DNA from: Chloropicon primus
Taxonomy: Eukaryota
DNA: 64,000 nucleotides
Direction of reading: 5' to 3'
Assembly: GCA_023205875.1 (NCBI GenBank)
Contig: CP060768.1
Coordinates: forward strand, 434,001-498,000
In this document: one piece after another, positions 730 through 64,000 of the stretch
How positions within the stretch are numbered: the stretch's first letter is position 1
How the letters are laid out: the number at the start of each line of letters is the position of its first letter
Notes under the pieces: model-generated
Databases searched by the model: none
Told to the model about the DNA's origin: nothing
What the model saw: the letters and a program-made list of their open reading frames with translations, nothing else
Made by a program: the position numbers and the translations under genes

Positions 730-1008
730 CTCCTTCACAGCAACCAGCCACGTGATCCCATCATCATCATCATCACAGACCCACCCCCCCAAAAAAAAAC
801 AAAAAACGCAAAGTCTCAGGGTCTCCCATCCTCCTCACGACGCCATTCCCTCCGAGTGAGGTGTCATTCGAAAGAGGATGAGACAAATCATGCGATGGTG
901 ACGCCTTCCTTCCCCCCTATCGTCCCCCTCGTCGCTGAGAACGACCTCGAACGTACCTCGTGCGCGCTCCTTTCGCTTCCCGCCACACAAGATCTCTAGA
1001 CCACAGGA

Positions 1009-1860
1009 TTGTTGGAGGTTTTCCCCTGTTGGTGGGATTCCAGTGTATACCAGTTTGGTCACACCCAAAGGACAACCCACAAAACGTTTTCTCGTTCTCA
1101 CTTGCTGGACAAGGCACTGGTAAAAAAACTAGCCTCGCGAGAGGAAGGGAGGAGGACGCCGAGTGAAACCCTAGCAGTCATGGCGCGATCAGGGAAGCGC
1201 CGTAAGAAAAAGGAGAAGCAGGGGAGTGGCTCGACGAGTTCCACAAGGAGGTCGCACTCTGGCGAGAGTCATGCTCAGGGCGCTTCGAAGTCGGGGCAGG
1301 AGTCTCCGACGACGGAGCCGTTACGTCGGTTCTGGAATCAGGGCTTGCAGTTGCTCTACTCGTTGTGCCTGCTTCCTATCGCGGACGACCCCGCCTCTGC
1401 GGGTGAGGGTTCGAGCACGCCTCGCAAGAAGCGGGGGCGGAAGCGGAAGGAGAAGCCGCTGGACGACCCCGCCTCTGCTTTCGAGGAGGGTTCGAGCACG
1501 CCTCGCAAGAAGCGGGGGGGGAAGCGGAAGGGGAAGCCGCCGGAGGCGGCTTCCTCTGCGGGTGAGAGTTCGAGCTCGTCAGGCAAGCCTCGCAAGAAGC
1601 CTCGCAAGAAGGGCAAGAAGAAGAACAAGAAGAAGGGTAAGAAGAAGAAGAACAAGAGGGGGAAGAAAGCAGGGAAGCAGCCGGGTGGCTTGGCGGACGA
1701 CAGCGTGAAGAAGACCTGGTTCTCATCGATCAAGAGAGAACTTGAAGAGGTAAAGTGTCCGAAGACGGGATGGAGGTCGTGCTTGAACCTTCCAGAAGAT
1801 TCTGTGGTATCCGTCGAGACATTGCAGTCGCCCGCCAAAAGGAAGAGGGGCAGAAACTGA
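1009..1860 (+). CDS. Lys/Arg-rich ORF with NLS-like repeats; probable N-terminal part of the Fanzor protein, out of frame by -1 (first ATG at 1180)
   Basis: Repeats of STPRKKRGRKRK, a poly-K tract and KKTWFSSIK; overlaps the Fanzor ORF by ~100 nt in a different frame. Confidence 0.5.
   Translation: MLEVFPCWWDSSVYQFGHTQRTTHKTFSRSHLLDKALVKKLASREEGRRTPSETLAVMARSGKRRKKKEKQGSGSTSSTRRSHSGESHAQGASKSGQESPTTEPLRRFWNQGLQLLYSLCLLPIADDPASAGEGSSTPRKKRGRKRKEKPLDDPASAFEEGSSTPRKKRGGKRKGKPPEAASSAGESSSSSGKPRKKPRKKGKKKNKKKGKKKKNKRGKKAGKQPGGLADDSVKKTWFSSIKRELEEVKCPKTGWRSCLNLPEDSVVSVETLQSPAKRKRGRN
1382..1610 (+). repeat. About three ~78-81 bp in-frame direct repeats
   Basis: Unit GGACGACCCCGCCTCTGC...GGGTTCGAGCACGCCTCGCAAGAAGCGGGG... 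at ~1383 and ~1461, with a degenerate third copy at ~1542. Confidence 0.85.
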
Positions 1861-3347
1861 AGACCTCCAAGCTATTGTCGGAGCGAACGGTGATACGGAC
1901 GAGGAAGCTGAGGATGCGCTTGAACCCTGAGCAGGCGAAGTGCCTTTGCAACTGGATGGGAGCTGCGCGTTTCACATACAACAAGTGTTTGGAGGCGGTC
2001 AAGAAGGAGGGTTTTCCGCTGGTTTGGACCGTCCTGCTGGACAGATTTGTGACGGCCAAACCGCGACGCCCTGAGGTCTTTGAGGGGCTGGAGAAAGAGC
2101 TGAAAGAAATCCAATGCTCTCCACGGCCATGGACAAAACAGGAGGCAGAGCTTTTCGCGGCCAGAGAGAAGAGACTCGAGAGCCAAATTGGAGGCAGACG
2201 ATTTCGCGCCGAAGTGGCCAAGGACCGGGACTACGTTAGCGGGGCCTTTGTAAATCAGAAGCATCCTTGGCTGAAGGATACCCCCTGTGCCATCAGACAA
2301 GCTGCCGTGCGAAGTCTCATCAAGGCATGGGATTCGAACATCGCGAAGCAGGAAGCGATGAAGGAGCGCGGCGAGGAGAAGGGGCACCGCTTCGTTCTCA
2401 AGTATCGTCAACGTCAGCAACCGAGCTCTTGGACCATTGAAATTGATGCAAGAGAGTTAAAGAACGTGGAGACGATCGAAAGGCCAAACACGAGGCACAA
2501 GGATGACACCAAGCACAACAAACGACGCAAGTGGACCAAGCTGGAGGTGTTCAAGAAGAAGATGGCCGGCGGGCCCCTGTACTTGACGGAGGAGATCCCC
2601 GGGGGCAAGATCGAGGGTGCCGTGAAGATCACAAGAAATCGCCTTGGGCAGTTCCACATGCACATTCCCATCGCGACGCCATGGGATCGCCTGCCACCCC
2701 TGAAGCCTGAGAACAAGCGGAAGGTTGTCGCCCTGGATCCGGGAGTCAGGACCTTTCAGACGTCGTACTCGCCGCAAGAAGGCGTCGGGGAGTATGCCAC
2801 GGGCGAGCGAGGCTTCGCGAGGCTGTTCAACCTCTGCTGGAGGATTGATGAGATCATTTCCGAGCGCAAAGACCCAAAGGTGAAGCTCCCTTACCTCGAC
2901 CGCCGCGACTTGAAGAGACAGCAATACGCCTGCATGGAGAAACTTCGAGGTCTGACGAACGAGCTTCACAAAAAGGTAGCCAACGATCTATGCAGGAGGT
3001 TCGACACAATCCTCCTCCCGGAGTTCAAGTCCCAAGACATGGTGAAGAAGAACAACAACGGGAGACGCCGAGTGATCAGGAAGAAGACGGCTCGCACGCT
3101 CTTGACGTTGAGGCACTATGCGTTCAGAACGTTCTTGGCTTCCAAGGTGCTCTTGCACGGCAGTGAGCTGGCGATCGTGACGGAGGAGTACACCTCCAAG
3201 ACCTGTGGCAGGTGCGGACACATCAAGGACAACCTGGGTGGAGCAGAGGTGTACAAGTGCCAGAAGTGTGGCTTCAAGTGCGGTCGGGATGTGAACGGGG
3301 CACGCAACGTCCTCCTGAAGCACTTGCGTCAACCAAAAAGTGTGTAA
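1755..3347 (+). CDS. Fanzor2 / IS607-family TnpB-like RNA-guided DNA endonuclease
   Basis: N-terminal OrfB HTH-like RTRKLRMRLNPEQ...WMGAARFTYN; RuvC-I KVVALDPGVRTF; RuvC-II FDTILLPEF with the rearranged Glu in VTEEYTSKTC; zinc ribbon CGRC...CQKC; RuvC-III RDVNGARN. Confidence 0.93.
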   Translation: MSEDGMEVVLEPSRRFCGIRRDIAVARQKEEGQKLKTSKLLSERTVIRTRKLRMRLNPEQAKCLCNWMGAARFTYNKCLEAVKKEGFPLVWTVLLDRFVTAKPRRPEVFEGLEKELKEIQCSPRPWTKQEAELFAAREKRLESQIGGRRFRAEVAKDRDYVSGAFVNQKHPWLKDTPCAIRQAAVRSLIKAWDSNIAKQEAMKERGEEKGHRFVLKYRQRQQPSSWTIEIDARELKNVETIERPNTRHKDDTKHNKRRKWTKLEVFKKKMAGGPLYLTEEIPGGKIEGAVKITRNRLGQFHMHIPIATPWDRLPPLKPENKRKVVALDPGVRTFQTSYSPQEGVGEYATGERGFARLFNLCWRIDEIISERKDPKVKLPYLDRRDLKRQQYACMEKLRGLTNELHKKVANDLCRRFDTILLPEFKSQDMVKKNNNGRRRVIRKKTARTLLTLRHYAFRTFLASKVLLHGSELAIVTEEYTSKTCGRCGHIKDNLGGAEVYKCQKCGFKCGRDVNGARNVLLKHLRQPKSV

Positions 3348-3520
3348 CTCCTCAGGGTTGCACATACGTTTGTTAGTACGGGCTGCCGTGCGTGGGCGGA
3401 AGTATTCGTTCATGTACGGTGGAATGGTCGTGGTAGGGCCGAATTACCCTGCCGAGAAACTTACAAACTCGGTGAAACGACCTTTGCAGAAAACTAACAG
3501 GTAAGTAGGGGCCGGACGGT
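3340..3520 (+). ncRNA. Fanzor omegaRNA: scaffold to ~3500, predicted guide from ~3501; the 5' end may overlap the ORF
   Basis: Conserved with the second copy up to AAAACTA(A/G)C(A/G)G, then abruptly divergent. 18-bp G-U-rich stem at 3383-3422; GGTCGT/ACGACC pairing (3426-3431/3477-3482); TTTGTTAGT/ACTAACAGG pairing (3369-3377/3493-3501). Confidence 0.8.
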
Positions 3521-3938
3521 TCTCTCTTTCAGTGGAAAGGAGAACTTGCCTTTGTGCTTCCAGTATTGACTGTGATTTTCCTACCGTCCTTTCGTGACTT
3601 TTCTGTGTGCTGTTTTTGATCTGATGTCTGAACACCATAACAAGGATTTTCAACCCTCCTAACAGAAATTTGAAATTTGAAATCGATCCCCCCCCCAAAA
3701 TCCAAAATAGGTTTTCATTCTCTGCTCTGCTCGTCGGGGTCGGCCAAGAGAGGGAAGCTTTGGTGAGGGTTTTGAGTCCGAGGACGATACGTGAGGCTCC
3801 AAAGGGCGAGGTCTCGTGAAAGATTGTCTCGTGGGCTTTCGTTCGACACCTCATTTTCTCGATTTGGTGACCGGAGTGCGTCGGTGGACGGGGCGTTGTT
3901 GGCGAAAGACCACCACCTGACCTGAGGAGAGGGAAGCC

Positions 3939-4385
3939 ATGACGATCAAGTTTATCTTGCTCGTGAACAAGCAGGGCCAAACGAGGCTCGCCAAGTACAC
4001 GGATGAGTTCCTGACGGTGGACGAGAGGACGATGCTGGAGGGGGAGATCGTGAGGAAGTGCCTGAGCAGGACAGAAAGGCAGTGCTCTATCGTTCAGCAC
4101 AGGAACTATAAAGTGATTTACCGGAGGTATGCTTCCCTTTTCTTCCTCGTGGGCGTGGACGAGGAGGAGAACGAGCTCGCCATCATGGAGTTCATTCATT
4201 GCGTGGTGGAGACCATGGACAGGTATTTCGGGAACGTGTGCGAGTTGGACATCATGTTCCACATAGAAAAGGCTCACTACTTGCTGGACGAGATGCTTGT
4301 GAACGGCACCATTCTGGACACAAACAGGTCGAATATTTTGACCCCGCTTCAGATGCTCGACAAGGCCCAGCAGTCCTCTTCCTGA
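3939..4385 (+). CDS. AP4S1: AP-4 complex subunit sigma
   Basis: IKFILLVNKQGQTRLAKY, YRRYASLFF, ENELAIMEFIH, FGNVCELDIMFH. Confidence 0.92.
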   Translation: MTIKFILLVNKQGQTRLAKYTDEFLTVDERTMLEGEIVRKCLSRTERQCSIVQHRNYKVIYRRYASLFFLVGVDEEENELAIMEFIHCVVETMDRYFGNVCELDIMFHIEKAHYLLDEMLVNGTILDTNRSNILTPLQMLDKAQQSSS

Positions 4386-5274
4386 GGTGGACCCGCCCAA
4401 GACTGAACAGTTTTAGCGCGGCGCGAAGGCACTGGCGATGATGACGGCGGCCGCAGGAGACGTCCGTGTGGTTCCGTTTGGCTTCGACGACGCGGAAGGG
4501 GAGGCGGGAAAGGGCCCGAGGGTGTGAAGGCGAGAGGGTACGTACATAAATGCAAATGTATTCCATTACTTATATTAGGGTCTCAATCGCCATTCTCAGG
4601 AAGAGCAATCCGTTCGTTTTCATTTTTATTTCTGTCACGCGTGCTTGCTGGAATCTAAATACTCCTCTGTCTCTTTTGCCCGGCGGCATCCCCTTCGGTT
4701 CTATTGTCTGCTGACGCAAGCAGTCCAGTGTCCCAAATTGGTCTTCACACCGACTGAAGAGGGAGCTTGTCCTTGTCCTCACAACACGAAATTACACCTA
4801 CGGACCAAGCCCCCCCCCTGCTCGACACCAGTTGCTTCCCCGCTTCCGCGGCTTCGGACTACACTAAACAAAAAACGAACACCGCAACGGAAGCAAGCGG
4901 AAGGCAAACAGAAACCGAAGCACCAAGTCTTGACCTATCCCGAGAGACCTGCATCCTGCAAAGCCAGAAAACTTGCTGGATGTGGGACAAAAAAGAGCAA
5001 AGACAGCCACAGATCGTAAATTCCCTCTCCTCCTCTACCACCACCGCCGCCAAACAACACACGCGCGCATTCATTCGTTTTGCTCTCCGCCGACTAGACG
5101 AATGCCACCCACCCTCATTCTTCCAAGGACCCCCCGCCTCGCCTCCAATAAGCTACTCCAACATGCTGATTTCAATCCCCTCACCCCCAAAACCCAGAAG
5201 TGCGCCGCAAGACCCACCCGCTCGCAAGCGAGAACAAGCGCGCAAGATTTCCTCCGTCACCACAGAGGAGTTTC

Positions 5275-6324
5275 TCAGAAACCTTTGAACAAGCTTTGCT
5301 CCTCTTCTGAGAGGTTGTCTGTGTGCTCCATGGGTGGAATGTCGTCATAGTTGTCGAACTGAGAGGTGTCATCAGGACCTGCGACCTGAGGCTTGATCGG
5401 GGCGGAGATGGTCTTGTTTACCAGCTGCGTCCAGTCAATGCCGTTGAACCAAGGGTGCATCTTAATATCTCTTGCGGCACCTTTCAAGTTTCCAAAACGC
5501 TTCGTGAGGTCAGGCTGAAGGAGCTTCTTGATCAAATCCCTACTAGACCTCGTGAAGTGCGATGGAAATTCAGGTTTGCTATGTAGAATCTTCTGGTACG
5601 TTCCCATTGGGTCGTCGTCATAAAACGGTGGGTAACCGGCAAGCATCTCGTAAATAAGAACTCCCAAGGCCCACCAGTCTACGGGCTTACCGTGACCCTT
5701 GTTCAAGATAACCTCTGGCGCCAGGTAGTCAGGGGTACCGCACAGTGTGTACGTACGGTGCTCAATCTGCTTCGCGAACCCGAAATCTGTCACCTTGATG
5801 TGTCCATCACGATCAAGGAGCAAGTTCTCCGGCTTCAGATCACGGTAAATGATGTCCCTCGAGTGCAAGTACTCGAACACCAACAGAACCTCAGCGGCGT
5901 AAATCTTAGCAGCGCTCTCCTTCAGCCTTCCACTCATTCGCAAGTGCGTGAAGAACTCACCGCCCACAATATATTCCATCACCAAGTACACGCAGTCCTT
6001 GTCCTGGAAGGTACCCAGCAGATTCACAACGAAAGGGAAGTTCACTGCTTTCAATATGTCTTTCTCTGCCTTTATATGCAAGACCTGCTTGGTCTTGATC
6101 ACAAGCGCCTTGGACAGGATCTTAATGGCGCAATTTGTTTTTGTAGCCTTGTGCTTGGCGAACACCACGCGTCCGAAACTTCCAGTACCAAGGATACGAT
6201 CTACTGCGAAGTCATCGATAGCCGTGCATGGCTCAAGCTTAATCTTCTCCACGACAGAGAAGGGAGGAACCTCGCTTTGCCTCCTAGGATTGTTCTTTTC
6301 TTTGTGGAACACGTTCTTAAACAT
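5275..6324 (-). CDS. cAMP-dependent protein kinase catalytic subunit (PKA-C-like)
   Basis: GTGSFGRV, YRDLKPEN, DFGFAK, RTYTLCGTPDYLAPE, GHGKPVDWW and a C-terminal FKGF; ATG at 6324. Confidence 0.93.
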   Translation of the reverse strand: MFKNVFHKEKNNPRRQSEVPPFSVVEKIKLEPCTAIDDFAVDRILGTGSFGRVVFAKHKATKTNCAIKILSKALVIKTKQVLHIKAEKDILKAVNFPFVVNLLGTFQDKDCVYLVMEYIVGGEFFTHLRMSGRLKESAAKIYAAEVLLVFEYLHSRDIIYRDLKPENLLLDRDGHIKVTDFGFAKQIEHRTYTLCGTPDYLAPEVILNKGHGKPVDWWALGVLIYEMLAGYPPFYDDDPMGTYQKILHSKPEFPSHFTRSSRDLIKKLLQPDLTKRFGNLKGAARDIKMHPWFNGIDWTQLVNKTISAPIKPQVAGPDDTSQFDNYDDIPPMEHTDNLSEEEQSLFKGF

Positions 6325-31229: not shown

Positions 31230-31390
31230 CATGCCCATGGCCTTTCTTTCCGCTAGTTTTGTGCAAAGGTCGTTTCAGTTTGCGTTTCTCGAAATGACCA
31301 TTCCGCCCTTAGCAAGCAAGCAAGCTCGCGAGCAAGGGCAGCTCGTACTAACAAACGCGTGTGCAACCCTGAGGAGTTACAGATTTTTTG
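31230..31390 (-). ncRNA. Second Fanzor omegaRNA (scaffold ends ~31250; predicted guide from ~31249 downward)
   Basis: Same conserved blocks as copy 1 (TAACTCCTCAGGGTTGCACA, TTTGTTAGTACG, GGAATGGTC, GAAACGACCTTTGCA) with structure-preserving substitutions. Confidence 0.75.
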
Positions 31391-31632
31391 GTTCCCACAA
31401 GTGCTTGAGAAGGATGTTGCGTGACCCGTTCGCATCCCGACCGCACTTGAAGCCACACTCCTGGCACTTGTACACCTCTGCTCCACCCAGGTTCTCCTTG
31501 ATGTGTCCGCACCTGCCACAGGTCTTGGAGGTGTACTCCTCCGTCACGATCGCCAGCTCACTGCCGTGCAAGAGCACCTTGGAAGCCAAGTACGTTCTGA
31601 ACGCATAGTGCCTCAACGTCAAGAGCATGCGA
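31377..31632 (-). pseudogene. 5'-truncated Fanzor fragment (catalytic Glu, zinc ribbon and RuvC-III only)
   Basis: LLTLRHYAFRTYLASKVLLHGSELAIVTEEYTSKTCGRC...RDANGSRN, nearly identical to 3092-3347; homology stops abruptly at ~31632. Confidence 0.92.
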
Positions 31633-32031: not shown

Positions 32032-34837
32032 GTCCTGTAGCATCATGTTGACGAGCATTGGATGCGGGGTCACTACCTCTTTGGCCTTTCTGTTCTCGGA
32101 CTTCTGCCGGCCGGAGCCAACGTTCACGCCGCCTCCTTCTGCGTTCTCCTTGTACCCCTTGCCGATTTTGCAATCGTTATGGCTGCAGGACAAGCACCTC
32201 AAGCCCCTTGAACCGTTGGTTGGGATCAAGGGGATCGAGGGGATCTTCTCGATCAAGGCTTTCTCGGACTCAGGTTTCTTTGTACACGGAACACAAAACC
32301 AGAAGCCAATCGTGTTCTTCAGTTGTGTCATGCCAATTTCCTTGCTCATGTCCCAAAGCTCCTTCTTGTCGACAGACTCCGTCGCTTTCAAGAAGCATCC
32401 GAACGAACACCACTGGTTAAAGCCGCTTTTGAATATGAAACGATGGCAGTACCAGCACCAGTTCGACAAGAGGTAAGTGGGATTGTGCCCAGCTCGATCA
32501 CGTTCCTCCCCCGGAACCGGTGTCAGAGCTCCTGTTTTGACCAAGGGGCACTCAGCGTGGCCAAGATAATCACAGCAAACACAGCGCAGAGCTTGAATAC
32601 CGTCTGTAGTAGGAACTTGAGGAAACTCCTTCATCGGCTCCCTTGCTTTGGTCTTCCTCTTCCCTTTCGTGTTGGTCTTGGCCTGTGTCTTCCTTGTCGT
32701 ACCAGTGCTCAAGGGACTGCTGCTGCAACGTTCACAGGGACATGCAGCGGCATCAAATTTGCGAAGCTCTCTCTCCCTCTCCCCGCCGTCCTCGGCGTCG
32801 CTGTCCACCAGAATGCAAGGACGACTCCTCTTGCACATGTCACAACCACAAATGCATCGAGTATGTGCTGGAGCGGTGTTCGCGGTGCCTGTTGTCCTGG
32901 ACGACTTGCGAGAGCATTTACCAGCGCAGGGGCATTCGAAGAAATCTTTTTGAGTCACAGAGATCGCGGTTTCTGGGAAACATTCATTCTCAAACACGAC
33001 ATCGACATGTTCTCCCTTTAGTGCATCCGCAAAGTACTCAAAGACTCTGCTCAATGCGTCTTCATCCAAGCCGTGTCCATCACGGTTTTCAAACAACTCG
33101 TCCCTCACGGAGTGAACGTGGCAGTATTGCCTGTAGGTCTCCAGGAACTCCATGTGCTCCTCGCGAAGAATGATGTCGTAGTTCGCTTCCGTGATGGAAC
33201 AAGCAGCGACGAGCACACGAACTGTGGGTTGGTTCTTCCATGCGCGGACGAGATCACTCGCCCGTTGCTCCACAAAGCGCTTTCCAAGAAGATACTCCTC
33301 ATCTCCAGCGAGAACCTGGGCTACGGCCTCTTGAACGTGTCTCTCCTCGGTGACGACGGCATCCACTTCTGTCAAGCACGCAACCGTTGCTATGTTCGCC
33401 TTACAGCACCTTTCCAAGAGCGTCCCGAGCGTCGCAAGCTCCCTTGTAAGCCGATCTGCACGGGTGCAGAGTTCTGCGTATTTGCCCTCGTCGCAGACCT
33501 TCTTCACCCATTCTTGGACGGCAGCCTCCTCCGAGGTCGAGCCTCTGCAAAGGTCCCAATTGTGATTTCAATCACCGGCAGCTTCCGCTTAGCGCAACAT
33601 CCTTCTGAAGGTTGTCGCGCACCTTGAGAGGACGTGGAGGAGTAGGCACCGTTGGACATATATCGAAGTAGACTTGGCGACGTCAGTTCCAGGCGACGTA
33701 CGGGCAATACCTACGAGGAGAAGGGGTTTCCCGTGCTTCTGCTCCCCCGGCTTCTCCAGATTCTCCAGCTTGTGCCTCAGGACGTGCTCGACGTGTTCGA
33801 CGAGGAGACAAAGTTCCTCAGAAGTGTGTTGGCCCGATGCTACAGAACAACGGGTGGCGCCGGACTTGAGCATGCAGTGCGACGCCGAGTACACGGCTTG
33901 CCCGTCCGAGGTGCTTGCAGCCTTGCTCATGTACTTTTTGAGCTCCTCTTTCTTTTCCTCCCCAATCAAAGCTGCTGCATGGGACGTCGGGATACACGCC
34001 AGTATAGAGGCCTGCCCTGCGCGCTCAGCAAGGTAGTCGAGGTCCTTGTAAGCTTGTGGCCGTCTCGACAATCGCGACAAGGCAGCTACAAGAAGCGCGC
34101 AAGGCTCGCCCTTCTCCTTCGCAAGGGCAAGAGCTTTCGTAAGAACTTTGCGGTCCTTGAGGCATCGCGAGCGGCTGGCGGTCCCAAGCTCCACGAAACG
34201 AAATGCTTTCACCTGTTTAGGAAGATCTTTGCCGAGCAACGCGCTTGAGATCGTGGCCGCCTGACCAGCGAGCTTGTTCCCAAGCCCCTCCTGCACAATG
34301 GACTCGCGGAGGAAGACGATGCAGTGGGTCAGTCCTTTCAAGCCCTCAACGAGCTCCAGGTAGACTCCGCCACGGCCTCGGACCACGCGGACCAGGGTCA
34401 GCTCCTCAGGCTGGCGAGTTCGCTCCGCCCGTGTACCCTCGCGTGCAAGGGTGGGCCGCGGGCCAGCTGATTCGTCTGCGAAGCGAAGAGAGGCAATAAG
34501 TCCATCCGCATTGAGAAGCGTCGTCGGATCCACGTTTTCCTCGATGGCGGCCATCTCCCGCTCCCTATGAGGTCCCGCGGAGGTCGCCATGGCCACTGTG
34601 CAAGCGTTGGTGTCCAGGCTTGCCGCACGGCTGCCCGCTGCCCTGCAAGTGGGTGAAGACAGAGACATTGGCACCACAATCCTTGGGCGCCACCCGCCAT
34701 CCTTGGGCGCCATCCCCCTGGAGAACCGCGGCCGGGGTGGCGCCACCAGCCCCTTCTTCACATGACGTCCCAGTATTCGTCAGTCTCCTCTTCTTCGTCG
34801 GCAACCCGCGGCTGTAGTATTCCAGGAGGTAACTCAT
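32026..34837 (-). CDS. Spliced gene with two tandem serine-recombinase (resolvase-like) catalytic domains and C-terminal Cys-rich zinc-finger modules; intron 33545-33622; 5' end uncertain
   Basis: Domain 1: CIVFLRESIVQ...AGQ...FVE...DRKVL...LLVAALSRLSR. Domain 2: LVGIARTSPG...SIYVQ...LCTRADRLTRE. A 78-nt GT..TTTGCAG intron removes the only two in-frame stops between ORFs 33589-34761 and 32026-33507. Confidence 0.7.
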
Positions 34838-35599: not shown

Positions 35600-35870
35600 T
35601 CGTTGCCTTCTTCCTGAGATTCGTGGGCTTGTTGTCGCTGCTGCTGCCGAAGCCTTCCTCCTCCTCGTCTGATCCTCGGTTCGCCTCGATCCAGTCGGCG
35701 TCGGCGATGTCATCATTACCGTTCTCCTCTGAAGATTCTATGCAACTGTCTGGGTCCGAACCACAAGGCGGAGGCAGGTCCTGGCTTCGAGCCCACTTGA
35801 GAACATCAAGGTGCCCTCCGTAAGCTGCCCATTCGCAAGTCTCCGCGGGACCTTTCTCACCTGACAGGCC
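35600..35870 (-). pseudogene. Fragment of an ankyrin-repeat family gene (3' end)
   Basis: Translates as WAAYGGHLDVLKWARSQDLPPPCGSD...; strong nucleotide similarity (inverted) to 58925-59070. Confidence 0.7.
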
Positions 35871-37910: not shown

Positions 37911-38230
37911 CAATCCTAAGCCGATCCTAAAACCAATCCTAAGCCTAAGCCGATCCAGAAACCCATTCTGAGCCGCTCCTAAAACCATCCTAAGCCGCTC
38001 CTAATCCTAAAACCATTCTGAGCCGCTCCTAAGCGATCCTAATCCTAAAAACATCCTGAGCTGCTCCTCAACTCATCCTAAGCCGTTCCTAACCGCTCCT
38101 AATCCTAAAACCCATCCTAAAGGATCGTAATCGATCCTAAAACCATCCTGAGCCGCTCCTAATCGATCCCAAAACACCCAATCCCCCCCAAACCATTCCC
38201 ATTTTCCCCAAAAGGCCTAACACCTAAACC
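37911..38230 (+). repeat. Degenerate telomere-like satellite (CCTAA core; TCCTAAAACCATCCTAAGCCGC-type higher-order unit)
   Basis: Dense run of CCTAA/CCTGA cores with recurring AGCCGCTCCTAATCCTAAAACCAT. Confidence 0.85.
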
Positions 38231-58399: not shown

Positions 58400-59072
58400 A
58401 CCATCATAACGGGCGAGCACGAGGGCGAACCAGGAGGGGAACGGGAACGAGAGAGAGAGAAACGAAGAGGACGGGAGCGCGAGGAGGAGGAAGTGGTGAG
58501 GATCTGACGACGACACGAAACGAGAGAGAGAGGCAGAAAGAGATCGAGGAGGAGACCACCGAGGAGGGGAGGCGCAAGAGGCAGAGGACGGAGCCCAAAC
58601 ACGCACTGGATTTGCTGCCAGGGAGTGCGTGGCTCCTGGTTTTGAAGAAGCTGAGCCCCCACGACCAACTTGCTTTCGGGTTGACCTGCAAGGCGTTCCT
58701 CGAGGCGGTGACGGCGACGGCGAGCCCCAAGTGGAAGAAGAAGGCTCTTCCTCTGAGGACGGACCTGAGACGTGAAACATTGTTCGAGGAGATGCCTAGC
58801 TTCAGCATGGGCTGGTTCCAGTGGGTGGCGAGCCAAGGGAACCCTTTGGATATTAAAGGTGTGAACTTTGGCGTGGTAGGATGTTCAGGCGAACCGCATG
58901 AGTGCCGGGCACGCTTGTTCTGGTGCAGCTGAAGGAGGTCGCCTTGATGTTCTCAAGTGGGCTCGAAGTCAGGATCCGTCTTGTGATTGGGACCAGTGGG
59001 TTGCGTAGAATCTTCAGAGGAGAACGGTAACGATGACATCGCCGACGCCGACTGGATCGAGGCGAACCGATG
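58400..59072 (+). pseudogene. Degenerate F-box-like/ankyrin-repeat family gene
   Basis: LDLLPGSAWLLVLKKL...DQLAFGLTCKAF (F-box-like), then an out-of-frame AAEGGRLDVLKWARSQDPSCDWD with a stop. Confidence 0.65.
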
Positions 59073-59195
59073 AAGGTGCCACTCGGGCTCGTTCCAAACC
59101 AGGTTGCTTCAAAGGTAGTTCTAGGTTTGAGTGTGACCTCGTGCTATCTTGGCTTTGATTAAGGAAATAGCGAACTTTTGTCCCATGGACGTTCT

Positions 59196-62855: not shown

Positions 62856-64000
62856 TTAGATCTCCTTCTCCGACTCCTCCCCTGGTTTCGCTTGCTCCGT
62901 ATTCACCTCGCTATTGTTCTCAAGCATCATGAGTATCATGTTGACGAGCATTGGATGCCGGATCACTACCTCTTCGGCCTTTCTGTTCTCGGACTCCAGC
63001 CGGCGGGAGCCAACGTTCACGCCGCCTCCTTCTGCGTTCTCCTCGTACCCCTTGCCGATTTTGCAATCGTTATGACTGCAGGACAAGCACCTCAAGCCCC
63101 TTGAACCCTTGGTTGGGATCAAGGGGATCGAGGGGATCTTCTCGATCAAGGCTTTCTCGGACTCAGGTTTCTTTGTACACGGAACACAAAACCAGAAGCC
63201 AATCGTGTTCTTCAGTTGTGTCATGCCAATTTCCTTGCTCATGTCCCAAAGCTCCTTCTTGTCCACGAACTTCGTGGCTTTCAAGAAGCAACCGAACGAG
63301 CACCACTGGCTGAATTCGCTTTTCGTGATCAAGCGGTGGCAGTACCAGCACCAGTCCGAGAGGAGGCAATCGGGATTGTGCCCAGCTCGATCACGTTCCT
63401 CCCCAGGAACCGGGGTCAGAGCTCCTGTTTTGACCAAGGGGCACTCAGCGTGGCCAAGATAATCACAGCAAACGCAGGGCAGGGCTTGCATACCGTCTGT
63501 AGTAGGAACTTGAGGAAACTCCTTCATCGGCTCCCTTGCTTTGGTCTTCCTCTTCCCTTTCGTGTTGGTCTTGGCCTGTGTCTTCCTTTTCGTGCCAGTG
63601 CTCAAGGGACTGCTGCTGCAAGGTCCACAGGGACATGCGGCGGCATCGAATTTGCGAAGCTCTCTCTCCCTCTCCCCGCCGTCCTCGGCGTCGCTGTCCA
63701 CCAGAATGCAAGGACGACTCCTCTTGCACATGTCACAACCACAAATGCATCGAGTATGTGCTGGAGCGGTGTTCGCGGTGCCTGTTGTCCTGGACGACTT
63801 GCGAGAGCATTTACCAGCGCAGGGGCATTCGAAGAAATCTTTTTGAGTCACAGAGATCGCGGTTTCTGGGAAACATTCATTCTCAAACACGACATCGACA
63901 TGTTCTCCCTTTAGTGCATCCGCAAAGTACTCAAAGACTCTGCTCAATGCGTCTTCATCCAAGCCGTGTCCATCACGGTTTTCAAACAACTCGTCCCTCA
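62856..64000 (-). CDS. Second copy of the double-serine-recombinase/Cys-rich gene (3' part only; continues beyond the window)
   Basis: Near-identical to 32039-33107 over ~1.07 kb, with a different C-terminus. Confidence 0.85.
   Translation of the reverse strand, partial: RDELFENRDGHGLDEDALSRVFEYFADALKGEHVDVVFENECFPETAISVTQKDFFECPCAGKCSRKSSRTTGTANTAPAHTRCICGCDMCKRSRPCILVDSDAEDGGERERELRKFDAAACPCGPCSSSPLSTGTKRKTQAKTNTKGKRKTKAREPMKEFPQVPTTDGMQALPCVCCDYLGHAECPLVKTGALTPVPGEERDRAGHNPDCLLSDWCWYCHRLITKSEFSQWCSFGCFLKATKFVDKKELWDMSKEIGMTQLKNTIGFWFCVPCTKKPESEKALIEKIPSIPLIPTKGSRGLRCLSCSHNDCKIGKGYEENAEGGGVNVGSRRLESENRKAEEVVIRHPMLVNMILMMLENNSEVNTEQAKPGEESEKEI

Follow-up and report, generated by a model that had tools for sequence, protein, structure and literature searches.

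A Fanzor2 transposon and related sequence in the window

Within the 64,000-nt stretch of Chloropicon primus DNA analyzed here (the window), a Fanzor2 gene occupies positions 1180..3347 of the forward strand (+). In this copy it is split by a frameshift near 1850, whereas sister copies have a single frame of 723 aa; the part that encodes the nuclease (1914-3347, +) is still open within an ORF at 1755-3347. The frame carries the Pfam domains PF12323 (IS605 HTH) and PF07282 (TnpB zinc-finger), a TnpB-like architecture with an HTH and a C-terminal zinc finger, and its PDB matches place it closest to Fanzor2, with ApmFz2 (9B0L), a mimivirus Fanzor2, as the top match among 15 (E 1.7e-20). The catalytic residues D328, E477 and D512 align to D324, E467 and D501 of ApmFz2. 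The RuvC1 DPG motif is present as VALDPG (D328, corresponding to ApmFz2 D324), and the rearranged RuvC2 glutamate lies six residues ahead of the zinc finger (E477 and C484; E467 in ApmFz2). By its sequence the product of 1180..3347 is a Fanzor2 protein, with RNA-guided cleavage as its predicted activity. The top database matches are C. primus proteins of 89–99% identity, forming a cluster of 46; among the 15 members listed, 10 are 722–723 aa long. The N-terminal part is 93% identical to P0001. C. primus proteins appear in the tables of Yoon 2023 (PMC10711439; preprint 10.1101/2023.08.09.552727), which already places the Fanzor2 of this species in a non-autonomous TIR transposon with a variable 5-nt TSD.

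The N-terminal extension of the protein (1180-1910 in the window; L082:501-1214 and L084:181-1008 in two related loci) overlaps an IS607 recombinase gene that is read in another frame, and because of this overlap it looks overprinted on tnpA. The recombinase frame is intact in L084; the Fanzor2 element in the window has no intact serine recombinase, only a stop-broken remnant in another frame.

We assign the gene to a non-autonomous transposon at 1010..3642 (+) with ends TGTT...AACA. The sequence AGGAT stands at 1005..1009 (+), followed by TGTT, and again at 3643..3647 (+), so that it brackets the element; we read the two as the putative left copy and the right copy of a 5-bp target-site duplication (chance 0.0076, at a single locus). 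The right end is placed by flank divergence and the left end from the duplication alone, and the 4-bp inverted ends TGTT/AACA and the 5-bp duplication come from one locus. Other choices of boundary yield an identical reconstructed empty site. No long terminal inverted repeat was found at the ends of the element.

A second, 5′-truncated copy lies at 31250..31632 (-) and consists of the final 84 codons of Fanzor2 and a shorter omegaRNA with an IS607-like GG end and no intron. The expectation that the adjoining coding sequence would differ from copy 1, the element at 1010..3642, by scattered substitutions only was borne out, with 13/246 bases differing and no gaps. The possibility that copy 2 is a retro-copy of spliced RNA is less favored, since both variable domains of its omegaRNA differ from those of copy 1 and it ends in GG. 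A separate intron-less lineage fits the sequences better. Copy 2 could be the right end, of the GG type, of a larger recombinase-like element.

Several other features were noted in passing. Two frames upstream of copy 2 (34761-31250, -) match Resolvase with E-values of 0.002 and 0.04, below the family cut-off; the second of them is Cys-rich. The Cys-rich frame is repeated at 96% identity (32039-33107 and 62932-64000), in the second case without a Fanzor tail, and TCCTAA-like repeats follow both copies and recur at 37913-38172. An inverted pair of about 150 bases with 87% identity (35673-35828 and 58925-59073) could be a small mobile element. The sole Rfam match in the window is a tRNA gene (35214-35123, -) whose anticodon loop carries an insertion. 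In the sequencing runs, several 5′-truncated Fanzor tails are joined to unrelated upstream sequence (loose ends 3176, 3247 and 3358).

Structure of the omegaRNA scaffold

Directly 3′ of the Fanzor2 gene, in sense orientation, lies a structured non-coding RNA that is covered by transcript-like contigs, which carry no strand. In both copies the sense strand folds beyond its shuffles (copy 1, z −4.76 vs −0.82 antisense; copy 2, z −2.17 vs −1.08 antisense). We regard 3340-3500 as the likely omegaRNA scaffold of Fanzor2. It opens with a hairpin across the stop codon (3340..3365, +), with 11 bp, a CTCA loop and pair probabilities of 0.9–1.0. A 3-bp hairpin follows (3367..3380, +; stem 3367-3369/3378-3380), the 8-nt loop of which presents the 5′ strand of a pseudoknot, GTTAGT (3372..3377, +). 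This strand pairs with ACTAAC at 3493-3498, which together with a terminal AG makes up the segment 3493..3500 (+), where the predicted end of the scaffold is also the observed end of the exon. Enclosed by the pseudoknot strands are a variable long stem-loop (3383..3422, +) and a second variable domain (3426..3482, +) closed by GGTC/GACC at 3426-3429/3479-3482. Among the contigs, one variant replaces the U3345-G pair with C-G, and a variant subfamily has an altered stop codon with the 5′ hairpin still paired. One derivative, present at single depth, has a 5-nt insertion within the long stem.

The original prediction had read the fold from a comparison of the two window copies, and part of it holds. 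The long stem with many G-U pairs is present as described (18 bp, arms 3383-3400/3405-3422, 7 G-U). All three substitutions listed for copy 2 were confirmed, the comparable pairs being the basal 8 only because the apex of the stem in copy 2 is unalignable. The GGTC/GACC closure of the second variable domain was likewise recovered, with a pair probability of 0.89 in copy 2 and only 0.33 in copy 1. The duplex said to close the scaffold required revision: its 6-bp core (3372-3377/3493-3498) stands, but it is the helix of a pseudoknot and not a simple 9-bp stem. The three outer wobble pairs of the longer version are broken in 4, 1 and 2 of 6 sequences, and the first T involved in them belongs to the hairpin 3367-3369/3378-3380, which had been overlooked. 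Scored over the alignment, the 9-bp duplex has 47/54 cells paired, against 54/54 for the pseudoknot version. The closing helix has its 5′ strand within the 8-nt loop of a 3–4-bp hairpin that covaries as well, and for this reason we interpret it as a pseudoknot.

Pair counts were taken from a six-sequence alignment; L017, L033 and L049 were excluded because the 5′ hairpin is misplaced in the nine-sequence alignment, and L040 was omitted from the pair table as a likely chance match. The small hairpin is paired in 18/18 cells, with changes on both sides in 2/3 pairs, and the pseudoknot helix in 36/36 cells, with such changes in 4/6; combined, two-sided changes affect 6/9 pairs. The pseudoknot has a covariation score of 0.659 versus 0.235 in shuffles, none of 500 of which scored as high, and slid controls pair at 24–48%. 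These controls lean in favor of the pseudoknot, because the structure and the limits of the segments were read from the same sequences. In the four relatives L081-L084 (41–56% protein identity) the closing helix is kept with compensatory changes. Selection on the structure of the sense-strand RNA, as originally suggested, is thus supported, more by these four relatives than by the two copies alone. The omegaRNA is an ordinary new member of its class with a well-supported pseudoknot.

Nested folding did not predict the small hairpin at 3367..3380, and when downstream sequence was included it gave the pseudoknot helix a probability of ≤0.05. An alternative pseudoknot, to which the 5′ hairpin would contribute its CTCA loop, was rejected, as this loop is unconserved in L081-L084. 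We scanned 147 regions for the hairpin-pseudoknot motif, namely the 145 of 160 loci with sufficient downstream sequence and the two window copies. Ten regions match, compared with 0–5 in each of ten shuffles and 2 in antisense; because six of the ten had defined the motif, the remaining 4/141 are not above chance by count. The motif was absent from L086, a relative at 48% identity. TnpB/Fanzor loci from a viral collection (L017, L033 and L049) have the motif with stems of 6–7 bp and GG ends. Rfam has no family for the scaffold RNA, and a search of the window at gathering scores yielded only a tRNA. A 23-letter scaffold pattern had 0 matches in viral contigs, and BLASTN found no match in the 160 loci for the scaffold, for copy 2 or for the left end.

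An invariant G-C pair at −2 matches the G(−192):C(−2) pair of the ApmFz2 omegaRNA, which according to the published structure is read by Asp397 and Lys401 (PMC11832414). These residues align to Glu and Lys in the window Fanzor2.

An intron between the scaffold and the host flank

Genomic copies were read through the contigs of 7 sequencing runs (X1–X7) of 21 listed; summed contig depths are rough and were never taken as copy number. Homology had been expected to stop right after the closing duplex, and between the two window copies it does. Multi-copy contigs of X1 and X2, however, continue to 3644, where four contigs in each run diverge into different flanks. Homology well beyond 3501, which the original prediction had named as evidence against itself, is thus present at the DNA level as 144 further shared bases. 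The listed loose ends of unspliced contigs all fall at 3644-3648, none at 3642-3643, so they keep the AG, and their positions agree with a 5-nt duplication that starts with AG.

The shared bases have the form of a 144-nt GT..AG intron (3501..3644, +) that carries the right end of the transposon, its acceptor AG being bases 1-2 of the right duplication copy. The donor reads CAG|GTAAGT and the acceptor AAG|G, with a single branch-like CTGAT at 3621; the mean intron size reported for C. primus is 152–154 nt (PMC12301720). Copies vary by simple-repeat insertions 15–20 bases into the intron (3515-3520), and no changes at the donor end are listed.

Contigs joining 3500 directly to 3645 were found in X3, from study P2, and in X4, from study P1; they continue to 4580 and 4495, respectively. 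This join is absent from X1 and X2, DNA-like runs from the same sample as X4, in which the intact junction lies on contigs of 3831 and 3816 nt that start at 3618. At the window locus the join was not present in X5, X6 or X7. Its shorter side is 25 letters, below the 31-letter bar of the tool, with a 3-letter overlap, on contigs that give no strand. Other loci behave in the same way: contigs stop exactly at 3500 in X3, X4, X5 and X6, and beyond this point five different flanks are seen. The X7 flank is identical to the one that follows the unspliced end of the element in X4, X5 and X6, so that two loci are seen in both forms; no unspliced form was matched to the other 3/5 flanks. Unspliced contigs also occur in X3, X4, X5 and X6, and the summed depth, a rough measure, drops on entering the intron (X3, 1930 to 125; X5, 282 to 34). 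Positions 3685-3755 are covered in X3 and X4 by no contig other than the joined one. Missing cover at 4608-5430, which is zero in X3, X4, X6 and X7, weakly hints that these runs are RNA; the tool's own guess for X4 is DNA (‘DNA?’). At the level of contigs, the 144 bases are an intron that is present in the DNA-like runs and removed in transcript-like ones.

The donor site lies 2 nt past the pseudoknot helix, exactly where the IS607 relatives end. The dinucleotide that follows the helix is AG in copy 1, GG in copy 2, L081, L082, L017, L033 and L049, and CG in L083 and L084, and it is directly followed by GT in 1/9 sequences, that of copy 1. L084 has a full IS607 recombinase (Resolvase E 9.8e-21), and 9 bases of its right end are repeated at its other end; in L082, unrelated coding-like sequence begins immediately after the end of the scaffold. 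IS607 elements are reported to cross over at such dinucleotides (Yoon 2023, PMC10711439). The dinucleotides, the end repeat of L084, the boundary in L082 and this mode of crossover point to 3500 as the ancestral end of the element. Copy 2 and L081-L084 fit, by sequence, an arrangement in which the scaffold abuts the flank in DNA. In the family of copy 1 that abutment is absent from DNA, with the 144 shared bases in between, and arises in the joined form only. The proposal that the duplex marks the junction of scaffold and guide therefore survives for the RNA, with the junction at 3500, but not the reasoning behind it, since the end in DNA lies about 142 bases further on. On the whole, what was originally observed has been confirmed in part, and its interpretation is partly supported.

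The 20 bases after the join (3645..3664, +) are the predicted guide, with a putative function as such in the spliced RNA. They match the reconstructed empty site behind CACAG; at the occupied junction the corresponding sequence is ACAAG. With the donor at the old end and the acceptor AG within the duplication, the spliced RNA carries flank-derived sequence that matches the empty site. The guide of the unspliced RNA, its first 20 nt, would find a match behind AACAG in every copy of the element, and under a CAG motif this RNA would be self-targeting; either the motif is not CAG, or the unspliced RNA stays unloaded. Apart from its own position, the unspliced 14-mer has a single match in the window, which lies in a G-rich tract and has 2 mismatches. 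Spliced molecules were observed as long contigs that read through into the flank; at the window locus they end at 4495-4580. The spliced transcript (3645-4580) runs into a host gene for a clathrin-adaptor (AP-complex) small chain (3939-4385), and because of this read-through the insertion may supply the 5′ end of that gene.

A splicing model and its relation to known systems

We consider it probable that the spliceosome removes the 144-nt right end and joins the scaffold at 3340-3500 to the host flank, likely making a guide against the empty site. The relatives belong to the IS607 elements and carry a serine recombinase, and from L082 and L084 their right end would lie 2 nt past the pseudoknot helix. 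The C. primus element would have lost the recombinase inside a TGTT..AACA cut-and-paste shell, pushing the flank some 142 nt away from the scaffold. In the contigs of several loci, the piece in between is removed from the old IS607 end to the AG that starts the duplication, and the flank brought in by the join matches the empty site as reconstructed. The presumed cutting agent is the spliceosome, and the donor at the old end together with the duplication AG would restore the junction of scaffold and flank in RNA. The long spliced RNA would then be trimmed and loaded on Fanzor2, which may cut empty sites by an AG-ending motif (CAG at one locus) and so promote re-copying of the element; RNA-guided cutting of empty sites is known from the homing of TnpB. 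A wider version of this model, which we hold to be about evenly balanced between right and wrong, is that of a nuclease programmed by splicing. In it the intron, running from the old IS607 end to an AG in the duplication, evolved after capture of an IS607 Fanzor2 by a TIR element, the spliceosome writes the guide of each copy, and the AG would combine three roles, as insertion preference, as 3′ splice site and as the end of the target motif, with splicing as a switch between a guide that matches the element itself and one that matches the flank.

Splicing could be real and serve the mRNA or the host in the manner of an introner, in which case the position of the donor at the scaffold end would be incidental and the working omegaRNA would be the unspliced one; its guide would be fixed, or else its scaffold would include the folded right end and duplication. 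The unspliced contigs of X3, X4, X5 and X6, the passage of the spliced contig across the AP-complex small-chain gene at 3939-4385, and the view of Yoon 2023 (PMC10711439) that TIRs and TSDs appear to be part of the Fanzor2 scaffold in eukaryotic transposons would all agree with this. We nevertheless judge it unlikely: the covarying pseudoknot sets the end of the scaffold at 3500 and not 3647, the donor coincides base for base with the ancestral end, a fixed guide would have matches in the copies of the element itself, and with 2.5 kb of the element remaining in the transcript little is cleared by the splicing. Less likely again is that the scaffold is a relic inherited from IS607 ancestors, so that the present-day Fanzor2 does not cut and neither form of the RNA guides it. 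The window copy is indeed frameshifted, copy 2 is truncated, and the single-depth derivative has its 5-nt insertion in the long stem; against this, the catalytic triad is intact by alignment, two thirds of the listed cluster members (10 of 15, from a cluster of 46) keep the length of 722–723 aa, and the scaffold changes between the window copies preserve the helices.

If no splicing took place, the join would be a deletion of DNA at short repeats, a template switch during library preparation or an artefact of repeat assembly. Such an event would be compatible with the three letters that fit either side of the join, with the 25 letters of its short side and with the ‘DNA?’ label of X4. It is nonetheless very improbable given the GT..AG ends and the CAG|GTAAGT donor, the recurrence of the same point in 5 runs, 4 studies and 5 flanks, the restriction of X1 and X2, which share the sample of X4, to the intact form, and the cover of 3685-3755 in X3 and X4 by the joined contig alone. 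Removal of the right end by the spliceosome is our preferred reading. Fanzors had to fit a bacterial guide-RNA design, with the scaffold at the end of the element, to eukaryotic transposons that have long ends and duplications. In the published solution the ends are folded into the scaffold; the family in the window suggests an alternative, in which the end is spliced away. For such a family, an omegaRNA read from DNA boundaries would yield the wrong construct, and introns may lie concealed in other Fanzors whose 3′ regions are long and conserved. A testable design is the scaffold 3340-3500 followed by any guide, with an AG-ending motif.

The closest precedent is the Fanzor2* of C. primus in Yoon 2023 (PMC10711439), which is the same family in a non-autonomous TIR transposon. 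There TIR and TSD are proposed as part of the scaffold, whereas in the window family the right end is spliced out; ‘intron’ and ‘splic’ have 0 occurrences in the main texts of the article and preprint and in one supplement file, figures 4A and S3 lying outside the text searched. In structure, the best relative is the ApmFz2 omegaRNA (Schargel et al. 2024, PMC11832414, 9B0L), in which the final bases of the scaffold likewise form a pseudoknot with a 5′ segment. As far as its published description goes, ApmFz2 also shares the G-C pair at −2, long stems that look dispensable and the rearranged catalytic triad. The scaffold of the window family is about 161 nt with an AG end, compared with 206 (positions −205 to 0) in ApmFz2, which was expressed from an unspliced native scaffold and has the motif GGG. 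With IS607 TnpB/Fanzor2 elements (ISXfa1; L081-L084) the family shares the pseudoknot, the 2-nt end and a recombinase frame overlapping the N-terminus of the nuclease. In those elements the scaffold meets the flank directly in DNA, whereas the C. primus element has a decayed recombinase and ends of the TIR/TSD type.

In Saito 2023, ‘splic’ occurs in a reference only, within the text available; the passages of Jiang 2023 concern introns within Fanzor genes; and a 2026 review treats splicing only for self-splicing introns and IStrons in 12/15 passages and section 6.2. A literature search by titles and starts of abstracts, in which subscription journals are poorly covered, returned no report of a scaffold-guide junction built by splicing. 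What is new here, at the level of contigs, is splicing that builds this junction; the guide function is predicted.

Two other systems bring splicing and transposon ends together. Introners, as described in PMC12130899, are transposon-borne spliceosomal introns that encode or co-opt their splice sites, and here the AG comes from the target duplication. Introners are excised whole from host exons, however, whereas here 144 of about 2630 bases go and the product is likely a guide RNA. In IStrons (Zedaveinyte et al., PMC10690162), intron, transposon end and omegaRNA overlap, and the 3′ splice site lies at the end of the element, as it does here. Rfam found no group I ribozyme spanning the element in the window, where the intron is 144 nt with GT..AG ends, and the element thus falls outside the IStrons. 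According to the same source, IStron splicing severs the scaffold from the guide, whereas the spliceosomal-type intron of the window family joins them. If this reading is true, a spliceosome that assembles the guide of an RNA-guided nuclease would be the mirror image of the IStrons.
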